Positions 9,402-37,104 of a stretch of DNA of 42,938 bases are shown here, piece after piece (positions within the stretch are counted from its first letter, which is position 1; each line of letters starts with the position of its first letter). Both the position numbers and the translations under genes were made by a program. Origin of the DNA: a virus (taxonomy: Duplodnaviria; Heunggongvirae; Uroviricota; Caudoviricetes); the IMG/VR virus record IMGVR_UViG_2541047938_000003, positions 1 to 42,938 of that record; one strand, 5' to 3'. The notes below the pieces were generated by a model. That model was not told the DNA's origin. It saw nothing but the letters and a program-made list of their open reading frames with translations, and searched no databases.

Positions 9402-10293
9402 CGTATCCAATTTAGCCGAAGCCAGAGAGGCCAGAAGGCTCCAGAAACCGCGCACGAATGACGGTAAGGGGTTTGCCTTGCTGCACCGTAAAATTATGGA
9501 TGTGCCGTTCTACAAGGACGCTGAGGCGGCTCATTTATGGGTTCACATGCTCCTGCGTGCTAATCACGAACAGACACTGGTATCTACTGATGTTGGCGAT
9601 GTGATCTGCGAGCGCGGAGAGTTCATCACCGGGCGAAACACACTGGCAATGGAAACGGGTTTGACCGCTGATCGCGTTAAATCCCTTCTCCGTAAATTCC
9701 AGAATCTGGGCATGATCACCACCAAATCGAACAACCGTTTTACTGTTCTAAAAGTGGTCAAATATGACGAATATCAGTCAAATTTTTGTCCAGCAGATGT
9801 CCAGCCAGCGTCCAGCCCAAACATAGTCGTACCAATGCCTGCGGAGGTGGAGTGTCCAGCCGATGTCCAGCCAGTGTCCACAGATAACAATATATTAAAT
9901 AACTTACTACCTAACGGTAGTAAGTATGTCGCAAATGACCAGAAACCCGCTGAAGAGAAAAAGTCTCGTTTGTCATGCGATGAAGTATGGCAATGCCTGA
10001 AAGACGAACTGCCTGAAGCACGGGGATGGAGATGCCTCACTGATGAGCGACGCAATCTGATCCGCACATTCTGGGGTAAGGCTAATAAGATTGCCCGCAA
10101 CCTGGACGGCAAGCCGATGGATATGGACGGTTTCAGAAGCTATCTGCGTTACATCGCTCAGAACTGCCGCTGGATGCTTGAAGACCGACCAGACCAGAAG
10201 TCTGGGAAGACCTGGCGCCGCATGAAATTCGATAAGTTCCTGACCGAAAAGCTCTACATCGAAGTGCGCGAGGGGGATCGTGATGACCGCTGA
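9394..10293 (+). CDS. Replication initiator (lambda O-like role) with internal iterons
   Basis: Winged-helix-like N-terminus; embedded repeats and adjacent AT-rich tract; followed by DnaB helicase. Start may be GTG 9388 or 9394. Confidence 0.6.
   Translation: MGNVSNLAEAREARRLQKPRTNDGKGFALLHRKIMDVPFYKDAEAAHLWVHMLLRANHEQTLVSTDVGDVICERGEFITGRNTLAMETGLTADRVKSLLRKFQNLGMITTKSNNRFTVLKVVKYDEYQSNFCPADVQPASSPNIVVPMPAEVECPADVQPVSTDNNILNNLLPNGSKYVANDQKPAEEKKSRLSCDEVWQCLKDELPEARGWRCLTDERRNLIRTFWGKANKIARNLDGKPMDMDGFRSYLRYIAQNCRWMLEDRPDQKSGKTWRRMKFDKFLTEKLYIEVREGDRDDR
9787..9884. repeat. Candidate origin iterons (about six copies of TGTCCAGCC-like motif) inside the initiator gene
   Basis: TGTCCAGC 9787, TGTCCAGCC 9798, CGTCCAGCC 9810, TGTCCAGCC 9853, TGTCCAGCC 9865, TGTCCACA 9877; followed by AT-rich tract and palindrome CTTACTACC-TAAC-GGTAGTAAG (9904-9925). 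Confidence 0.5.
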
Positions 10294-11716
10294 TTTCATG
10301 GCTGTACCACAAAACCTCGAAGCAGAGCAGAGCGTTATCGGTGGCCTGCTGCTGGATGATGACAACAGCGAGCGAGTCCAGAAGGTTCTGGCGATGCTCA
10401 AGCCTGAATCGTTCTACAGCCGACCTCACCAGCTGATCTTTGCCGAGATGCGCCAGATGTTCCGCGACAACAAGCCAGTCGATGGTCTGACATTGTTCGA
10501 CGCGCTCGAAGGCAAAGGGCTCGCGGAGCAGGTAGGTGGCTTTGCTTACCTGGCGGAGATCGCCAAGAACACTCCCAGCGCTGCAAACATCGTGGCATAC
10601 GCTGCGTCAGTCCGGGAAGCCGCAATGGAGCGCTACGGTATCAGCCGCCTGACCGAAGCTACTGAGCTGCTGTATTCCCGCAATGGCATGAGCGCCACGC
10701 AGAAGTACGAGGCCATTCAGGGTATTTTCACCCAGCTCGCAGACCATTCAAAAACCGGTAGTCGCCGTGGGTTGCGGTCGTTCGGCGAGGTTATGGATGA
10801 CTGGGTAGCAGATCTGGAGAAACGCTTTGACCCTTCAGGCGAACAGCGCGGCATGAGCACCGGCATCCTGTCACTCGACCGGCTGCTGGCGCCGAAAGGT
10901 CTGGTTAAAGGCTCTCTGTTCGTGATTGGCGCAAGGCCAAAGATGGGCAAGACAACCCTGTACGGTCAGATGGCGATCAACTGCGCGGTTCGTGAGAAAA
11001 AGCCAGCGCTGATGTTCAGCCTCGAAATGCCGGGCGACCAGATCCTCGAAAAACTGGTTGGTCAGAAGTCTGGAGTTAACCCGAGCATTTTTTACATGCC
11101 AGCCACGGATGACGCCGATGACCAGTACCAGGGCGATTACGACGGCGACTTTAAGAAGGCGATCGCCACCGCCGGGCGATTGAGTGAAATCGACATGCTG
11201 TACATCGACGATACTCCTGGCCTGTCACTGGCGCACATCGTTAGCGAAAGCCGCCGAATCAAGCGCGAGAAGGGCTGCGTAGGAATGATTTTGGTTGACT
11301 ACCTGACTCTGATGACCGCCGAAAAAGCCGACCGTAATGACCTTGCCTACGGGATGATCACCAAAGGGTTGAAGAACCTCGCTAAAGAGCTTGGCTGCGT
11401 CGTCGTGCTGCTGACCCAGCTCAACCGCGAACTGGAGAAGCGAGTGAATAAACGCCCGTTACCGAGCGATTCCCGCGACACAGGACAGATTGAGCAGGAC
11501 TGCGACTACTGGGTTGGTATCCACCGGGAAGGTGCTTTCGATGACAGCGTGCCGCCGGGAGAAACCGAGTTAATCCTGCGACTCAATCGCCACGGCAGTA
11601 CCGGAACGGTTTATTGCAATCAGATCAACGGGGCAATTTACGACACAGACCAGCAGGCCGCCGCCGCAGAACGACGCGGGCGTGAGCAGCAGCCGAAAAA
11701 GAAAGGGGGATTCTGA
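10283..11716 (+). CDS. dnaB: Replicative DNA helicase, DnaB family
   Basis: DnaB-type N-terminus (QNLEAEQSVIGGLLLDD), Walker A GARPKMGKTT, typical RecA-like core. Confidence 0.9.
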   Translation: MTADFMAVPQNLEAEQSVIGGLLLDDDNSERVQKVLAMLKPESFYSRPHQLIFAEMRQMFRDNKPVDGLTLFDALEGKGLAEQVGGFAYLAEIAKNTPSAANIVAYAASVREAAMERYGISRLTEATELLYSRNGMSATQKYEAIQGIFTQLADHSKTGSRRGLRSFGEVMDDWVADLEKRFDPSGEQRGMSTGILSLDRLLAPKGLVKGSLFVIGARPKMGKTTLYGQMAINCAVREKKPALMFSLEMPGDQILEKLVGQKSGVNPSIFYMPATDDADDQYQGDYDGDFKKAIATAGRLSEIDMLYIDDTPGLSLAHIVSESRRIKREKGCVGMILVDYLTLMTAEKADRNDLAYGMITKGLKNLAKELGCVVVLLTQLNRELEKRVNKRPLPSDSRDTGQIEQDCDYWVGIHREGAFDDSVPPGETELILRLNRHGSTGTVYCNQINGAIYDTDQQAAAAERRGREQQPKKKGGF

Positions 11717-30170: not shown

Positions 30171-31673
30171 ATGTCGGCATCAATTAATAACGTCATTAAT
30201 GTGACGCTTCTCGAAGAGGGACGGGCGGCGGCGCGAGATAACATCAACGTTTGCGCAATGCTTACCAGCCAGACGGGGGTATTGAGCACCGCTGAACGCT
30301 GGCGTTCATACAAAAGCGCATCTGCTGTCGAACAGGACTGGGGGGCTTCTTCGGTCACCGCAGCATTTGCGAATGTGTTTTTCGGGACCAGCCCTAACCC
30401 GGTATCCGCGGGCGGCACGCTGATCGTCGGTTACTGGAACGCTGCCGGGGAAACGCTGCCTGCGACCAGCGGTGTACTGCGTGGCGGTGAGATTTCTCAG
30501 GCAGTCGTACTGCCAGCGTTACGCGAGAAGTCTGACTGGTCATTCAGTATTGAGATTGACGGTACGAAGCACGATGTGACCGAAATTAATGGCATGACGG
30601 CGACGACACTGGCAGATGTAATCGCCCAAATCCAGGCGAAAATTACGCCAGATGTTGCATCGGTTGTTTTTGATGGCAGCCGTATAGCGATTACCAGCAA
30701 ATCGACAGGGACTAACTCTGTTGTTGGTTATCCGACAGTGCTGGATGGTGGCTCTTTTATTGGCGATCTGCTGGCGGTTGCGGAGGGTTCCGGCGCTTCG
30801 CTGGTAAACGGTAGCGCATCAACTGAGATTTCACCGGAAACACAACTGGAATCTCTCAGCAAACTCAAAGCGCAGGTCAACGTAAAAGGCGCGGCCTTCA
30901 TCGACAAAATTCTCGATGCGCAGGTGCCGTTGATCGCTTCATGGGCTAAAGCGAACGCGGTAATCGTGTATGAGACATTTACCGGTTCGGCAGCTCTGGA
31001 AGTTGATCCGACTAACCCGGCATGGGCGGTAACACTCGCCAGCCAGAGTAATTTCCGCATGCTCTACAGCAAATCAGGCAACCGGAAATTTAGTGTTAGC
31101 TATATGGCGCGCACGCATACCGTTAATTTCAACGGAGAACGCACTGCAATCACTTTGCACCTCAAAACGATGAACGTGCCGGCCGAAAGTTATGAGCAGA
31201 CGGAGATCGACAAAGCGAAGCGCGTAGGTCTCGACATCTACACCACGATTAAAGACGTTCCCTGCGTGCTGTCAAGCGGTGCTAATGATTTTGTCGACAA
31301 CGTCTATAACCTGATGGCCTACGTTGACGCAGTGCAGACGGATTCCTTCAACCTCCTTAAAACCACGCCGACTAAAGTCCCACAAACCTATTATGGCGTT
31401 GATCAGTTAGAGGACTGTGTAGAGAAAACCACGCATGGGTTTGTGAAGGCTGGGGTGTTCAATCCGGGTACCTGGACGCTGCCTGACTTCTTCGGGGATC
31501 GGGATATGTTTCTGCGAAATATCGAGCAAAACGGGTATTACGTGCTGGCCGGTGACCTGAAAGACCAGTCAACCGCAGACAGGCAGGAACGCAAATCCCC
31601 GGTTGTTCAGGTAGCAGTGAAGAATGCTGGTGCTGTTCACAGTGCCGATATCATCATCAATTTCAATAAATAA
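30171..31673 (+). CDS. Tail sheath protein (putative)
   Basis: 500 aa followed by a ~140-aa tube-sized protein, chaperone and tape measure; consistent with a contractile tail. Confidence 0.55.
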   Translation: MSASINNVINVTLLEEGRAAARDNINVCAMLTSQTGVLSTAERWRSYKSASAVEQDWGASSVTAAFANVFFGTSPNPVSAGGTLIVGYWNAAGETLPATSGVLRGGEISQAVVLPALREKSDWSFSIEIDGTKHDVTEINGMTATTLADVIAQIQAKITPDVASVVFDGSRIAITSKSTGTNSVVGYPTVLDGGSFIGDLLAVAEGSGASLVNGSASTEISPETQLESLSKLKAQVNVKGAAFIDKILDAQVPLIASWAKANAVIVYETFTGSAALEVDPTNPAWAVTLASQSNFRMLYSKSGNRKFSVSYMARTHTVNFNGERTAITLHLKTMNVPAESYEQTEIDKAKRVGLDIYTTIKDVPCVLSSGANDFVDNVYNLMAYVDAVQTDSFNLLKTTPTKVPQTYYGVDQLEDCVEKTTHGFVKAGVFNPGTWTLPDFFGDRDMFLRNIEQNGYYVLAGDLKDQSTADRQERKSPVVQVAVKNAGAVHSADIIINFNK

Positions 31674-31683
31674 GGAGCGGTAA

Positions 31684-32115
31684 ATGTCTAAGATTGTTAT
31701 CAGTGCAGATACCGCGACCATCGTTCTGAATGGGCGAATCATCACGGATATCGCTGCGGGGGACTACGTCACGCTGACGCCATCCAATCCTCTTACAAGC
31801 CGCGCCAATAGTGCGAATAACGGCGTCACAATCTCCGGGCGTGTTGATGCCGGGGTGCATGTGATGGTGATACGTGTCCAGAAATTTTCTAACGATGATA
31901 TCTGGCTTAACCAGCAGCGCAACGCCGCGATCCCCGTTGTCCTTAACGGCTCAGTTAAAGAGTCGTTCGTGCGCGACGGCGCGGCACTGAAGGAAACCTA
32001 CGATCTACAGGCCGGTTCTATCACTACACAACCGACGCAAACCAAAAACAACCAGGACGTTAACGCACTAATGGAATACACCATTGAGTACCGCAATGTC
32101 GTGCGTAACGTATAA
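31684..32115 (+). CDS. Tail tube protein (putative)
   Basis: 143 aa between sheath and chaperone. Confidence 0.5.
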   Translation: MSKIVISADTATIVLNGRIITDIAAGDYVTLTPSNPLTSRANSANNGVTISGRVDAGVHVMVIRVQKFSNDDIWLNQQRNAAIPVVLNGSVKESFVRDGAALKETYDLQAGSITTQPTQTKNNQDVNALMEYTIEYRNVVRNV

Positions 32116-32123
32116 GGCCAGAT

Positions 32124-32537
32124 ATGTCTAAAGAACAGCAGAAAAAAGCACTCGAGATGATCAAGGCGGTCTACGATGACGGTTTTGCTGAGATTAACGG
32201 CAACCGCTACGACTTTGCAGCGATGACGCACAAAAAACGCCGCAAGGTTTTTGCCTTCTTCACAGGCATTGCCTCTGAGTTATCGCGGCAGTCTCTTGAG
32301 TTTCTGGACTCAGAGCGATTCGAGGAAATTGAACGCCTGATGTTCGATTACGTTCTGTTTGACGGTGTGCAACTGTCCAAGCAGCCGGAACACTTCGAAT
32401 CCTACCCTGGTGATTACGTCATGCTAATCACAACAGCGCTTCAGGTTATCAGCCTGCCTTTTATGGGCGGGAGCAATATGAACTCACGTTCAGAAGCTCC
32501 AGACGTTCAGAAATTTACGTTAAAGCCTCGAACATAA
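32124..32537 (+). CDS. Tail assembly chaperone (putative)
   Basis: 137 aa immediately upstream of tape measure; a -1 frame stays open from 32414 to 32704. Confidence 0.5.
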   Translation: MSKEQQKKALEMIKAVYDDGFAEINGNRYDFAAMTHKKRRKVFAFFTGIASELSRQSLEFLDSERFEEIERLMFDYVLFDGVQLSKQPEHFESYPGDYVMLITTALQVISLPFMGGSNMNSRSEAPDVQKFTLKPRT

Positions 32538-32690
32538 GCGACGACATGAGCATGTATCTGGCGCTGTCAAAGGCCGGATACGGCCCCTATCACGAACTAG
32601 TTAAATTAGACACACCAGATCTGTTTGACATGCTTGAGTTCGAGAATATCAGCGCAGACATTCAACACTACGAGATGGAGAAGGCGCGGA

Positions 32691-34487
32691 ATGGCGATAG
32701 TTAACGAGCTTATTACCAAATTCGGTTTTATCGGTAATCTGGCGCCGCAGGAAACCTTCAATGCAAATCTGAAAGCGTCTATTGGTTTGCTTGCCGGGCT
32801 TGGAGCCGCTATCGCCGGTTCGGCTGCGGGGGTTGCTGGCTGGGTGACGTCTGTCAGTCAGTCTATTGATCCGCTGGTCCAGTTCTCCCGGGAAACGGGG
32901 GTGGCGATCGAGACCGTTCAGTCACTGGGTTACGCGGCGTCTGTAAATGGCTCAAGTGTTGATGCGTTGCAGGCTTCGCTAGGTGAGATGACAAAAAGAG
33001 TGGGGGAGTTCGTTTCCACCGGCGAGGGGGAGGCGAAAGACGTTGCGGAAAGGCTGGGCCTTCAGTTCAAGGATATGAACGGGCAGGTAAAAAACTCCGA
33101 TGTGATATTTCGTGAACTGGCCGACAAACTGCACGGCATGAGCCAGGCAGAGAAGTTTTCTGTTCTGGATAAGATGGGTATCGACCGTTCCATGGTGCAG
33201 TTGCTATCCATGACGGGCGAAGAAATATCTTCGTTGCAGAACAAGGCCGAAGCGCTTGGTGTTGTCACGCAAGACCAGGCCGATCAGTTTGCAGCCTACA
33301 ACGATTCTCTGACAACGCTGGGGAAAGGCTTTGATGGTATCAAATTTCAGGTTGCCGTCGGATTTGTGCCGGTACTGAAAGACCTGGTGGATGGGTTTAC
33401 GGACTTTCTCATTGCTAATAAGGATCTCATCAAAAACGGGCTGGCCCATCTTGGGGAAATTATCTTCTCCGTTATGGGTATGATCCGTCGCTTCCTGCCG
33501 ATTATTGGTCTTATTACCACCGGATTTGTAGCCTGGAAAATTGCTGCTATAGGACTTAGAACGGTGCTGGCAACCATATTCTCTCCTGTCGTACTGATCA
33601 CTGCCGCCATTATCGCTCTCGTTCTTGTTATCGATGATTTGCTGACGGCTATGGAAGGTGGCCAAAGCGTTATTGCTGATTTCTTCAAAGATAACTGGGG
33701 AATAGATATTGTTCCCGCACTGAAAGAGGCGAAAGCGTCGCTCATGGCTTTCATAAACTACGCCATTGGCGTGTTTAAACCGCTTGCTGATGCGATTGCC
33801 TCCATGTTCAGGATGGTGTGGCATCTCATCACAGGTGCGTTTACGGGTGATTTTCAGGATGCGATGAAGGATGCGCAGAATATCTTTGATTCTCTTATAG
33901 CGTTTATCACTGGTGCATTTGGTGTCGTTGGTGATGCGATTAAATACGTGTTTGGCGATGCCGGCTCGTTTGTCGTTGATGTATTCACTACTGCCATCGA
34001 AAACACGAAGCTGATGTTCTCAGCACTATGGAAGTTAGTCACTGGCGATTTTGAAGGTGCATGGGGGGATGTGGTAAAAATCTTCGATAACGGCGTCGAA
34101 CTGATGAAAAAACCATTCACGGCTTTTATTGACTGGGCGAAAAACATCTTTGCTGGGCTGGGGGAATACATCAGCAATATTATCAGCAACGCTGCTTCAA
34201 ATGCCTGGAATGCGACAAAGTCATTCTTCGGGGTCGGTGAGGATGAACAGCAGCAGGGAGTAACCGGCGGCGGTAACGGCGGCATGAGTCCTGGTGGTAT
34301 TCCTTACGGCATGAATGCTGCGGTGGGACTCGGTGGTGGTGGCGTGACAAGCAATTCAAGCGTCAGCCAGCAGAACACGATTCACATCAACACATCCGAT
34401 CCGGTTGTCGCCGGGAATACTGCGGCAGATAGCCTGCAACAAAACATGAAGGATGCCAACCGGTTGAGTGGCAGAGGAGGTCGGTAA
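32691..34487 (+). CDS. Tail tape measure protein
   Basis: ~600 aa; N-terminal TMP-like region, central hydrophobic segments, Gly-rich C-terminus. Confidence 0.8.
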   Translation: MAIVNELITKFGFIGNLAPQETFNANLKASIGLLAGLGAAIAGSAAGVAGWVTSVSQSIDPLVQFSRETGVAIETVQSLGYAASVNGSSVDALQASLGEMTKRVGEFVSTGEGEAKDVAERLGLQFKDMNGQVKNSDVIFRELADKLHGMSQAEKFSVLDKMGIDRSMVQLLSMTGEEISSLQNKAEALGVVTQDQADQFAAYNDSLTTLGKGFDGIKFQVAVGFVPVLKDLVDGFTDFLIANKDLIKNGLAHLGEIIFSVMGMIRRFLPIIGLITTGFVAWKIAAIGLRTVLATIFSPVVLITAAIIALVLVIDDLLTAMEGGQSVIADFFKDNWGIDIVPALKEAKASLMAFINYAIGVFKPLADAIASMFRMVWHLITGAFTGDFQDAMKDAQNIFDSLIAFITGAFGVVGDAIKYVFGDAGSFVVDVFTTAIENTKLMFSALWKLVTGDFEGAWGDVVKIFDNGVELMKKPFTAFIDWAKNIFAGLGEYISNIISNAASNAWNATKSFFGVGEDEQQQGVTGGGNGGMSPGGIPYGMNAAVGLGGGGVTSNSSVSQQNTIHINTSDPVVAGNTAADSLQQNMKDANRLSGRGGR

Positions 34488-35641: not shown

Positions 35642-36585
35642 TGGATACTTTTTACCGTGATTATCGGCTGACGGTGGGGATCGGCAATCAAGCAGTGATT
35701 ATCGAGCCACCGATCACCGTGTCATTCAAGGCGCTGGAAACTGTGGACAAGAAGTCACTCGGCAAGCTGAGTGTGTCCATCAACGGGCTAAAGCCTTCCA
35801 CGCGTCTGCAATTGCTCAAGTCCGAAGATGAAGAGAAGTATATCCCCGTTCGACTCGAGGTTGGTTACGACGGCAAGCTGCGCCAGGTATTTCAGGGTTC
35901 GGTTAAAAGCGGAGCAGTAAAGCGTGAGGGGGCGATCCACATCGTCAGCCTGGAATGTGAAGACGGTGGCCACGACTATATCAACGCCTTCACATCGCGC
36001 ACGGTACGCGGGAAAGATCAGGTCGTCGATTCTGTCTTGCAGGATATGCCAAACACGAAAAAAGGCTCTGTGACGAAGCAACAAGCACTCATCAGGCCGA
36101 AGGTTCTGGTAGGTAGCTCCAGTAAAATTCTTACCGATACCCTTGCGCCCGACGAGTCATTTTTCATCAAAGATGAGCGCGTCCACATCCTCAAGGCTAA
36201 TGAGGTTACATCGGGTAACATTCCAGTCGTGAATGCGCGTAGCGGCCTGCTAAATACGCCTCAGGCTACGAAGATTAGCGCGCAGGATGACGGCGGGAAA
36301 AAGGCCAAAAAGCCGACCAATGAGCCTGATACGGATCCGGCAGGCAAAAAAGATACTGACTCGAGTACCTTAGCCAAATCCTCGAAAGGGCAGATCGTAT
36401 TCGATACGAAACTGAATCCTATGCTGGTGATCGGTGGGCTTTGCGCTGTTGAAAGCGTGACGAACCCCGCGTTAAACGGGGTTTATAAGATATACCAGAT
36501 TGAAACCAGCGGGCAGAACAACGGGGCAGCCTGGTATCAGAAGGTGGTATGCCAGCCTGCCGGAAATTACTCAGTTGTTAACTGA
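35638..36585 (+). CDS. Baseplate hub-like protein (putative)
   Basis: 315 aa; position between tape measure and spike/baseplate genes. Confidence 0.45.
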   Translation: MMDTFYRDYRLTVGIGNQAVIIEPPITVSFKALETVDKKSLGKLSVSINGLKPSTRLQLLKSEDEEKYIPVRLEVGYDGKLRQVFQGSVKSGAVKREGAIHIVSLECEDGGHDYINAFTSRTVRGKDQVVDSVLQDMPNTKKGSVTKQQALIRPKVLVGSSSKILTDTLAPDESFFIKDERVHILKANEVTSGNIPVVNARSGLLNTPQATKISAQDDGGKKAKKPTNEPDTDPAGKKDTDSSTLAKSSKGQIVFDTKLNPMLVIGGLCAVESVTNPALNGVYKIYQIETSGQNNGAAWYQKVVCQPAGNYSVVN

Positions 36586-37104
36586 AGATTTTACTTCTTG
36601 CGTTACGCTGGAATTGGTTTTTTCTGGTGGGTGACGATCTGAAAGCCAGCCAAGAGCAAAAATAATGACTGTGAGAATAAAAATTTTCTCGCCTATTGAA
36701 AACTTCACCTTACCACCTGCATTTTTAAATGCCGTTTTCTCCTCGGTTGATAGTTTTCTAAATTGCTTATGGGTTAATACCATGACCAATGGGCGAGGTG
36801 GTTGAATATCTTCCTGACCATCCTCTAACAACGTTGAGTCCGAAAAGAAACCAAGCCGCTCAGGTGCTTGTTCCTCTACGTTCTCAGCGTGTTTACCGGT
36901 GGAGTTCTTTTGACCCGCGAGCAAGTTTCCACTCGTGTAAGACAAACCGGTACCGGGAATGCCTGCGGTTGCCTTTACCCCTTTTTTACCAACGTTCAGG
37001 GTAGCACCAGCCTTACCAATTGATGCGCTAGTAATGCCTGTTTTACCTATGTTTATATGAATGCCTGGTGCAATTTTGATGCGCTGTCTGAATTTGAATC
37101 CCAT
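36571..37104 (-). CDS. Reverse-strand accessory gene: DUF4236-like N-terminus with C-terminal TM helix
   Basis: MGFKFRQRIKIAPGIHINIGKTGITSASIGKAG...GIPGTGLSY matches the remembered DUF4236 pattern; hydrophobic IFILTVIIFALGWL; strong RBS AAGGAGAG; AT-rich; opposite strand to all flanking tail genes. Confidence 0.6.
   Translation of the reverse strand: MGFKFRQRIKIAPGIHINIGKTGITSASIGKAGATLNVGKKGVKATAGIPGTGLSYTSGNLLAGQKNSTGKHAENVEEQAPERLGFFSDSTLLEDGQEDIQPPRPLVMVLTHKQFRKLSTEEKTAFKNAGGKVKFSIGEKIFILTVIIFALGWLSDRHPPEKTNSSVTQEVKSSVNN

Follow-up and report, generated by a model that had tools for sequence, protein, structure and literature searches.

A Predicted -1 Frameshift in the Tail Assembly Chaperone Gene of an XM1-Like Escherichia coli Prophage

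Organization of the Tail Locus

The window considered here, the whole stretch of 42,938 nucleotides that was analyzed, has the setting of an XM1-like E. coli prophage, and all features described below lie on its + strand. The tail sheath gene (30171..31673) is identified by its match to XM1 gp6 (PDB 7kh1; E = 6.4e-157) and by Pfam DUF3383, and the tail tube gene (31684..32115) by its match to XM1 gp7 (PDB 7kh1; E = 2.8e-35). Directly downstream of the tube gene lies an open reading frame for a 137-aa protein (32124..32537), which ends with TAA at 32535-32537, matches phrog_16705 over its full length, and is read here as a short, gpG-like tail assembly chaperone. It is followed by a 52-aa ORF (32546..32704), annotated as such in RefSeq and GenBank, and by the tape measure gene (32691..34487; phrog_8125, E = 1.3e-215; Pfam PhageMin_Tail), whose start is the same in RefSeq for a 98% identical prophage. 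The order is sheath, tube, chaperone pair (32124-32704), and tape measure, with the pair placed between the tube and tape measure genes as in G/GT-type systems. Records of this phage group either omit the small ORF or label it, like the chaperone, a hypothetical protein.

The frame that is -1 relative to the chaperone gene is closed on its upstream side by TGA at 32411-32413 and stays open from 32414 to 32704, comprising 96 sense codons and a stop at 32702-32704, so that it overlaps the tape measure gene, which begins with ATG at 32691, by 14 nt (ATGGCGATAGTTAA). An earlier note on this DNA had described this frame as ending at the tape measure start, and translation confirms both its extent and the quoted end of its peptide (...MSMYLALSKAGYGPYHELVKLDTPDLFDMLEFENISADIQHYEMEKARNGDS, followed by the stop). 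The earliest ATG, GTG, or TTG in the frame is the ATG at 32546, 9 nt past the chaperone stop. The chance that the 44 codons upstream of this ATG would be open is approximately 0.12 (3 stops per 64 codons); openness of the -1 frame alone is thus within chance, whereas its conservation exceeds chance. The portion that concerns us is an extension of 80 codons plus TAA (32462..32704), of which the annotated 52-aa ORF is the C-terminal part and whose conservation in 57 diverse representatives begins with its very first residue. If codons 32124-32462 were read, followed by a slip of one base back and then by 32462-32701, the product would be a gpGT-like fusion of 193 aa (32124..32704), a prediction from conceptual translation only.

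The Chaperone Protein and Its Family

AlphaFold2 assigns pLDDT values above 90 to most of residues 11-110 of the chaperone and below 50 to residues 117-136, with confidence collapsing beyond residue 114. The model predicts a folded domain at residues 1-114 and a disordered tail at 117-136. The protein shares 34% identity with XM1 gp8, while searches of Pfam, NCBIfam, and PDB sequences with the chaperone or the fusion found no family. Against Pfam Phage_TAC_9 (PF10876), the window protein has no match even at E = 0.1 and none of 36 family members matches (0/36); XM1 gp8 scores 21.9 bits and the homologue of Vibrio phage 1.154.O, labeled tail assembly chaperone in its GenBank record, 24.6 bits, the gathering threshold being 25. 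Judged from these comparisons, the link of the window chaperone to Phage_TAC_9 is only transitive. Fold matches to named tail assembly chaperones, such as XkdN/YqbN (PDB 3klu), are weak.

The family set assembled for comparison comprises 142 distinct junctions from 303 loci, with chaperone identity down to about 33%. Cultured phages with the same arrangement are XM1, VBM1, Athena1, 1.154.O, 1.052.A, and fEV-1; Vibrio phage XM1 and Yersinia phage fEV-1 carry the signal described below, unannotated.

Coding Constraint in the -1 Frame

Synonymous sites were compared among 47 distinct close relatives. In the gene body, 97 of 103 zero-frame third positions are variable and their diversity is 0.365; from 32457 to the stop, 6 of 27 are variable and diversity is 0.058. 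The drop in zero-frame synonymous variation occurs exactly at 32457; past there, variation tracks the -1 frame, and positions 32457-32466 are invariant. The 8 bases between the chaperone stop and the ATG at 32546 follow the same pattern, as 32539, 32542, and 32545, which are the three -1-frame wobble positions of this interval, vary and the other five are invariant. Inside the small ORF, wobble diversity in the -1 frame is 0.326. These patterns support coding selection on the -1 frame before its earliest ATG is reached.

Across the family, 130 of 132 complete distinct junctions keep the -1 frame open over 75-84 aa past the slip site. In the 57 diverse representatives, conservation of the extension sets in with the codon next to the motif; the extension consists of a basic linker (YGREQYELTFRSSRRSEIYVKASNISDD) and a conserved C-terminal domain (GYG...LDTP.LFD.LEFE.I..DI). 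Within the overlap, mean pairwise identity is 51% in the -1 frame vs 42% in the zero frame. The zero frame has its last conserved residues at P112 and F113, both invariant, beyond which the tails vary from 7 to 29 residues. Moreover, 16 junctions have a -1-frame stop one codon upstream of the heptamer, and 13 of these also have a zero-frame stop 21 nt downstream of it; with stops on both sides, the frame change in these 13 is confined to the 31 nt that hold the motif. Diversity pattern, conservation, and bracketing all indicate a -1 frame that overlaps the zero frame and is translated ahead of its own start codon. One naturally fused homologue (P0001; Kluyvera, 178 aa) owes its fusion to an indel upstream of the slip site, is truncated at its end, and was treated as an error or mutation and given no weight.

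The Slip Site in the Window and Across the Family

The earlier note had found the zero frame to be without a canonical XXXYYYZ heptamer, and direct reading of the sequence bears this out, as the window contains no X_XXY_YYZ heptamer in that frame. The search of the region for slippery sites returns G_CCT_TTT, conserved at the codon level, which the note missed because the motif of the window is degenerate. We propose G_CCU_UUU at 32456..32462, covering Pro112-Phe113 and located 25 codons ahead of the chaperone stop, as the -1 slippery site, on the grounds of the invariance of 32457-32466, the codon-position switch, and the family motif. Shift-prone zero-frame motifs between 32453 and 32537 are limited to the tetramers U_UUU, A_AAG (32522-32525), and a weak G_GGC. 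The U_UUU tetramer at 32459-32462 is intact and is a shift-prone Z_ZZN tetramer with cognate A-site re-pairing, and P-site re-pairing from CCU to GCC keeps two of three pairs. In E. coli, H_HH.U_UU.Y ranks with the most efficient heptamers, and among tetramers U_UUY is second only to A_AAG for shifting (PMC4066793). The efficiency of the non-canonical heptamer of the window may be low. Near 32511-32517, A_AAT_TTA is a canonical heptamer, but it lies in the wrong frame and was set aside.

At the Pro-Phe position, the 142 junctions read C_CCT_TTT (75), G_CCT_TTT (40), T_CCT_TTT (16), C_CCT_TTC (5), A_CCT_TTT (2), and C_CCT_TTA (1; junction L192, in which Phe is replaced by Leu and the motif is retained), while the remaining 3 read CCG TTT TTG, which places a G_TTT_TTG motif one codon later. 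Canonical heptamers (C_CCT_TTT, C_CCT_TTC, or C_CCT_TTA) are the family majority (81/142), and N_CCT_TTY/A occupies the homologous position in 139/142. The Pro codon is CCT in 139/142, whereas another conserved Pro of the same genes is encoded by CCC (35), CCG (31), CCA (30), and CCT (23); the Phe codon is TTT in 136/142, with other conserved Phe positions split about 50:50. Across the 47 close relatives, position 1 of the heptamer is G, A, or T and in no case C (0/47). By this comparison, G_CCU_UUU is read as a degenerate form of the family's canonical C_CCU_UUU.

Downstream RNA Structure

A possible stimulatory stem-loop (32470..32500) begins 7 nt past the heptamer, with GGAGC (32470-32474) pairing to GCUCC (32496-32500) and enclosing UGAAC/GUUCA. 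RNAfold gives -20.2 kcal/mol for 32463-32545 (z = -2.0). Over the family, mean z is -0.99 for the downstream 60 nt vs -0.37 for the upstream 60 nt (p = 0.003), and several lineages have stems of 7-11 bp downstream. No shared pairing register is preferred in an ungapped alignment of 60 diverse junctions, and a single conserved downstream hairpin was rejected given the lack of a common register and an MFE z-score excess that is modest only. In the clade of the window the stem-loop region is invariant and offers no substitutions for covariation, and no covariation was found; an Rfam search of 32300-32800 returned no match. The case for a downstream stimulator in the window is weak.

It is conceivable, though we regard it as rather doubtful, that a Tyr-to-Leu change in the enterobacterial clade destroyed C_CCU_UUU and left G/A/T_CCU_UUU, with single-tRNA slippage on U_UUU over a mismatched P site, helped by a clade-specific stem-loop, and with an extra A_AAG giving a second fusion isoform with a different linker in this variant. 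If so, the clade would provide a natural series on the degeneration of a chaperone signal at a kept product ratio.

Proposed Mechanism and Alternatives

Very probably, 32124-32537 and the 52-aa ORF make up a single tail assembly chaperone gene that ribosomes read in two frames. The frameshift extension suggested by the earlier note is supported by synteny, by coding selection ahead of the ATG, and by the family-conserved motif. We infer that the majority of ribosomes would translate the zero frame to the TAA at 32535-32537 and produce the 137-aa protein, while a minority would slip one base back with Pro-tRNA on CCU and Phe-tRNA on UUU (32457-32462). After the slip, which the hairpin at 32470-32500 might promote, Phe-tRNA would again be fully paired with UUU and Pro-tRNA would match GCC at two of its three bases, and the slipped ribosomes would proceed in the -1 frame to the TAA at 32702-32704, yielding the 193-aa fusion of the shared N-terminal domain and the 80-residue extension. 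If lambda gpG/gpGT is a guide, the shared domain may coat the tape measure protein, the extension may recruit the tube protein, and the efficiency of the frameshift would set a fixed, low ratio of long to short product. In the virion proteome of fEV-1, Gp17 was detected and Gp18 was not, and a six-frame search reported nothing at this place, although chaperones are not expected in virions. The predicted -1 linker peptides are EQYELTFR, SEIYVK, and ASNISDDMSMYLALSK for the window and LTIPSR, GSAENFIQK, and TNVSDEMFTYLALVK for fEV-1.

An unlikely alternative places the -1 shift of the window mainly at the A_AAG tetramer (32522..32525), four codons before the stop, so that the fusion would keep the zero-frame tail. 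This site would reproduce the lambda G/GT geometry by its nearness to the stop, and no tetramer shifts more readily in E. coli than A_AAG (PMC4066793). However, the codon at this site in the 47 close relatives is AAT in 35, AGT in 6, AAG in only 4, and AAA in 2, and G_TTA_AAG (32519-32525) was rejected as a conserved slip site on the same grounds. Furthermore, the switch in constraint starts at 32457 and not at 32522, the -1 linker encoded by 32462-32521 is conserved across the family, and a tail of 7 codons, as some members have, is too short to hold such a site. From its sequence, A_AAG is a possible minor, variant-specific second slip site, and it may add a minor second isoform in this variant.

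Still less probable is that the 52-aa ORF is an independent gene translated from the ATG at 32546, perhaps by termination-reinitiation, without any frameshift. The closeness of this ATG to the chaperone stop would suit such a route, and both RefSeq and GenBank annotate it so, with separate hypothetical proteins on record (WP_019076900.1; fEV-1 g18; XM1 2_9); in 39 of 57 diverse representatives, the earliest ATG is found within extension codons 28-31. The earlier note had offered this reading as a substitute for the frameshift, and it is disfavored by the wobble-only variation ahead of the ATG and by the lack of an ATG in the extension of 9/57 representatives, 4/57 having no ATG, GTG, or TTG at all. 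In addition, the coding pattern in the -1 frame is already present upstream of the ATG, the 29 residues ahead of the Met are conserved family-wide, including the motif TN(V/I/L)S(D/E), and Vibrio phages VBM1 and 1.052.A retain the extension without an annotatable small ORF. An independent gene would also leave the fixed CCT TTT codons unexplained. Shine-Dalgarno pairing at ATG 32546 (-2.1 kcal/mol) is the weakest of 12 starts tested, a minor argument, as three other genes are about as weak. About 60% of diverse members have a Met where the small ORF is annotated to begin, and some independent initiation there is thus conceivable.

Productive slippage of RNA polymerase usually requires T runs far longer than four. 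Such transcriptional slippage, in place of ribosomal frameshifting, is a most improbable source of the long form: six Ts occur in many relatives (CCCTTTTTTG) and a non-ribosomal route has been proposed for T4-like chaperone genes (Vladimirov et al., 2022, as cited in PMC12846349), but the T run is only four long in the window and throughout its clade (CCTTTTA), and tRNA re-pairing better accounts for a Pro codon held at CCT and for the C favored at position 1.

Significance

A -1 frameshifted tail chaperone is a known phage device that has so far been unannotated in this phage group; the papers on fEV-1, XM1, and the PLPE group contain no mention of frameshifting, though it may have been noted elsewhere. 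Reading the two ORFs as one frameshifted gene corrects the annotation of widespread small contractile-tailed phages and prophages of the XM1 and fEV-1 type, among them prophages of E. coli, Citrobacter, Kluyvera, Salmonella, Yersinia, and Pantoea alongside many contigs of marine or freshwater origin. For XM1, the virion structure has been solved, with an assembly pathway proposed without mention of a chaperone, and the missing chaperone pair of this phage is predicted to be gp8/gp9. Gene finders would gain C_CCU_UUU, well supported, and its degenerate variants among bacterial -1 frameshift signals. The general picture of tail assembly is unchanged.

Comparison With Known Systems

Conservation of the tail assembly chaperone frameshift among long-tailed dsDNA phages was reportedly described by Xu, Hendrix and Duda in 2004. 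For lambda, the gpG/gpGT frameshift and the binding model have been reviewed (PMC5009743). The window resembles lambda in having an overlapping ORF pair between the tube (major tail) and tape measure genes, a second ORF in the -1 frame that needs no start of its own, a slippery site within the first ORF, and, as predicted here, an abundant short product and a rare one with an added C-terminal extension. It differs in its slip site, which is C/G_CCU_UUU rather than the G_GGA_AAG of lambda and lies at a domain boundary rather than at the gene end. The G/GT-type geometry advanced in the earlier note is thus matched by the -1 frame overlap and the gene order and departed from by the slip site, which lies 25 codons upstream of the end; the distance from slip site to stop, 25 codons in the clade of the window, is 8 codons in many relatives. 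Further differences from lambda are a dual-coding stretch of 75 nt whose -1 frame shows the higher conservation, an extension of 80 aa as opposed to about 140, and the absence of detectable sequence similarity between the lambda and window chaperones.

With P2 gpE/gpE+E' and Mu-type pairs, the locus shares a myovirus setting and the order tube, chaperone pair, tape measure. The slip site of P2 is T_TTT_TTG, and a T-rich slippery run is found here as well, since many relatives read CCC_TTT_TTG and three read G_TTT_TTG. However, the chaperone of the window belongs to another protein family, without a Pfam match, and its T run is only four bases long. The family consensus C_CCU_UUU is also the heptamer of the NS1' site of West Nile and Japanese encephalitis viruses, though that site operates in an unrelated gene of a eukaryotic RNA virus, at very high efficiency and with a pseudoknot.

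A parallel in reasoning is the TAC-N/TAC-NC frameshift of Pakpunavirus and Andersonviridae, which was inferred by comparative genomics (PMC12846349). There too, a downstream "hypothetical protein" was re-read as the C-terminal portion of a protein made by frameshifting, on the strength of a -1 frame free of interruptions and of conservation of a T-rich motif (GTTTTT; PMC12846349). The phage group and the protein family are different, and the present case adds the contrast in codon usage, the bracketing by stop codons, and the analysis of synonymous sites.

Gene Order and the Open Frame

The window (1-42938) is an entire temperate prophage that carries an integrase gene (1-1194), a DnaB helicase gene (10280-11716), terminase, portal, and capsid genes, and an XM1-like tail and baseplate module, its tail being of the "dwarf" or "minimalist" myovirus type of Vibrio phage XM1 and Yersinia phage fEV-1. 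On the + strand, the tail sheath gene (30171-31673; match to XM1 gp6, PDB 7kh1, E 6.4e-157) and the tail tube gene (31684-32115; XM1 gp7, PDB 7kh1, E 2.8e-35) are followed in the ORF map by a 137-aa ORF (32124-32537), a 52-aa ORF in the -1 frame relative to it (32546-32704), and the tape measure gene (598 aa; phrog_8125, E 1.3e-215; Pfam PhageMin_Tail), whose ATG at 32691 overlaps the 3′ end of the small ORF. Automatic ORF calling puts the tape measure start at TTG 32625 (620 aa, adding 32625-32690); ATG 32691 is backed by its use in RefSeq for a 98% identical prophage and by a conserved MA(I/V)VNE N-terminus, and its overlap with the extension stop (32702-32704) lies within ATGGCGATAGTTAA. 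Of 5426 complete E. coli genomes, only 5 hold a near-identical prophage with the same tail region, and their annotations list the two small ORFs as hypothetical proteins in their own right. Within the otherwise co-directional tail and baseplate module, a DUF4236 ORF on the - strand (36571-37104, 177 aa, E 4.9e-19) looks like an inserted accessory gene (moron).

The earlier note described the -1 frame as open from 32414 through 32704, and translation agrees: 96 sense codons precede the stop, and the peptide is the one quoted there; a TGA at 32411-32413 shuts the frame on the upstream side. The probability that the 44 codons ahead of the ATG stay open by chance was calculated at about 0.12, so the open frame by itself proves nothing.

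Shift of Coding Constraint in Close Relatives

From 58 IMG/VR contigs of 80-100% nucleotide identity, 47 distinct sequences were aligned. In the chaperone body, nearly all variation falls at zero-frame third positions (mean diversity 0.365, 97 of 103 sites variable). From 32457 to the stop these positions are almost invariant (0.058, 6 of 27 sites variable), the residual variation lies mostly at -1-frame wobble positions, and positions 32457-32466 do not vary at all. In the eight bases between the stop and ATG 32546, all three -1-frame wobble positions are variable and the other five bases invariant, and within the small ORF -1-frame wobble diversity is 0.326. This pattern indicates that the -1 frame is under coding selection before its first possible start codon and that the change starts at CCT TTT (32457-32462). 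The first candidate slip site, G_TTA_AAG near the stop, was rejected as unconserved, AAG giving way to AAT in most relatives, to AGT in six, and to AAA in two.

A Conserved Pro-Phe Motif

No canonical zero-frame XXXYYYZ heptamer is present in the window, in agreement with the earlier note, which had found none; the conserved Pro-Phe motif reads G_CCT_TTT there (32456-32462). A protein search with the conceptual fusion (predicted 193 aa) recovered homologues with identities as low as 43%. P112 and F113, both invariant, close the conserved part of the protein in alignments of 20 and 36 members, and the zero-frame tails beyond them vary in length and sequence. Scanning of viral, genome, and metagenome contigs turned up 303 loci, which carry 142 distinct junction sequences. 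At the Pro-Phe position, 75 of these carry C_CCT_TTT, 40 the G_CCT_TTT of the window clade, 16 T_CCT_TTT, five C_CCT_TTC, two A_CCT_TTT, and one (L192) C_CCT_TTA, in which Phe is changed to Leu and the slippery pattern retained; three have T_CCG_TTT then TTG, which yields G_TTT_TTG one codon on. The Pro codon is CCT in 139 of the 142 junctions, which are phylogenetically non-independent, versus CCC 35, CCG 31, CCA 30, and CCT 23 at another conserved Pro, an internal control drawn from the same genes. The Phe codon is TTT in 136 of 142, and TTT and TTC are roughly even at other conserved Phe positions. Judged from these sequences, codon choice at the site is fixed.

Counted from the motif in the -1 frame, the extension is 75-84 residues long in 130 of the 132 junctions that are complete. 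It is conserved from residue one, with the approximate consensus F.R.RYRL.(V/I)........(Y/F)(I/V)...TN(V/L)S(D/E)......L.K.GYG.......DT..(F/L)LD..E(F/Y)E.I...I. Over the 24-codon two-frame overlap, mean pairwise identity is 51% in the -1 frame versus 42% in the zero frame. Zero-frame tails after the slip site (homologous to 32463-32537) are bimodal in length, at seven codons (51 distinct junctions) and 24 codons (72). Long tails share a conserved ...KKPM* end, apparently a by-product of the KTNVS motif in the -1 frame. Sixteen junctions have a -1-frame stop one codon ahead of the heptamer, and 13 of them have their zero-frame stop 21 nt after it, so that in these 13 the frame change must fall within 31 nt containing the motif.

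The small ORF is annotated separately in some records, and the earlier note had raised its independent start at ATG 32546 as an alternative. This reading fares poorly, since -1-frame coding selection precedes the ATG, and the extension lacks any ATG in 9 of 57 diverse representatives and any ATG, GTG, or TTG in four. The selection and the conserved motif together argue for the frameshift extension of the chaperone that the note had proposed.

Atypical relatives were also seen. Locus L151 (IMGVR_UViG_3300009506_000379) has C_CCT_TTT and an extension that diverges after about 20 residues and ends after 44, probably through a contig indel or as a decayed copy. In one metagenomic relative (L031/L093/L197, IMGVR_UViG_3300012233_000029; protein P0091), a deletion has brought the tape measure's C-terminal half into frame behind the -1 extension, giving a fused ORF of 314 aa counted from the annotated Met. 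The Kluyvera cryocrescens protein P0001 (178 aa, C-terminus cut short) enters the -1 frame about 10 codons before the slip site (...DYVMVVT, then HRVAGHQPAFYGRE...); it was rejected as a natural fusion and probably reflects an indel or sequencing error.

Cultured Phages and Probable Chaperone Identity

Yersinia phage fEV-1 has the canonical C_CCT_TTC, and Vibrio phages XM1, VBM1, Athena1, 1.154.O, and 1.052.A have C_CCT_TTT then TTG; all six retain the same extension, annotated as a short downstream ORF (XM1 2_9, fEV-1 g18) or not at all (VBM1, 1.052.A). Publications on fEV-1, XM1, and the PLPE group are silent about frameshifting. In the fEV-1 virion proteome Gp17 was detected and Gp18 was not, which is uninformative on a fusion because chaperones are not virion components and the preparation also held 240 host proteins.

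The window protein, 34% identical to XM1 gp8, matches no Pfam or NCBIfam family; its XM1 and 1.154.O homologues score 21.9 and 24.6 bits against Phage_TAC_9, just below the cutoff of 25, and the 1.154.O record names a tail assembly chaperone. AlphaFold2 models residues 1-114 with confidence and leaves 117-136 disordered, so the modelled folded domain stops at the slip site. A Foldseek comparison with viral models gave weak matches, several with chaperone names. What identifies the protein as a chaperone is mainly its position, size, and recoding signature, rather than its fold.

Proposed Mechanism and Comparison With Known Systems

The motifs that drive -1 shifting most efficiently in E. coli include H_HH.U_UU.Y heptamers; of the tetramers, U_UUY ranks second there after A_AAG, with frequencies between fractions of a percent and a few percent when aided by a stimulator (PMC4066793). 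The window's G_CCU_UUU retains the tetramer, and two of the three Pro-tRNA pairs could re-form on GCC. The check for downstream structure returned a predicted stem-loop 7 nt downstream (32470-32500; z = -2.0); across the family no shared stem-loop register was found, and the downstream region is just modestly more structured than the upstream one. A downstream stimulator is plausible on these predictions. An A_AAG at 32522-32525, specific to the window's variant, could add a minor second isoform. Transcriptional slippage is an unlikely source of the long form, as the T run is four Ts.

The candidate pair represents phage recoding of an ordinary kind, in a group of phages whose records do not annotate it, and the comparative evidence for it is unusually clean. 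In lambda, a ratio of about 1:30 is reported for gpGT to gpG, the chaperone pair made by -1 frameshift (PMC5009743), and the E. coli U_UUY range is comparable to it (PMC4066793; PMC5009743). The proposed slip site would lie at a domain boundary, as opposed to the end of the gene.
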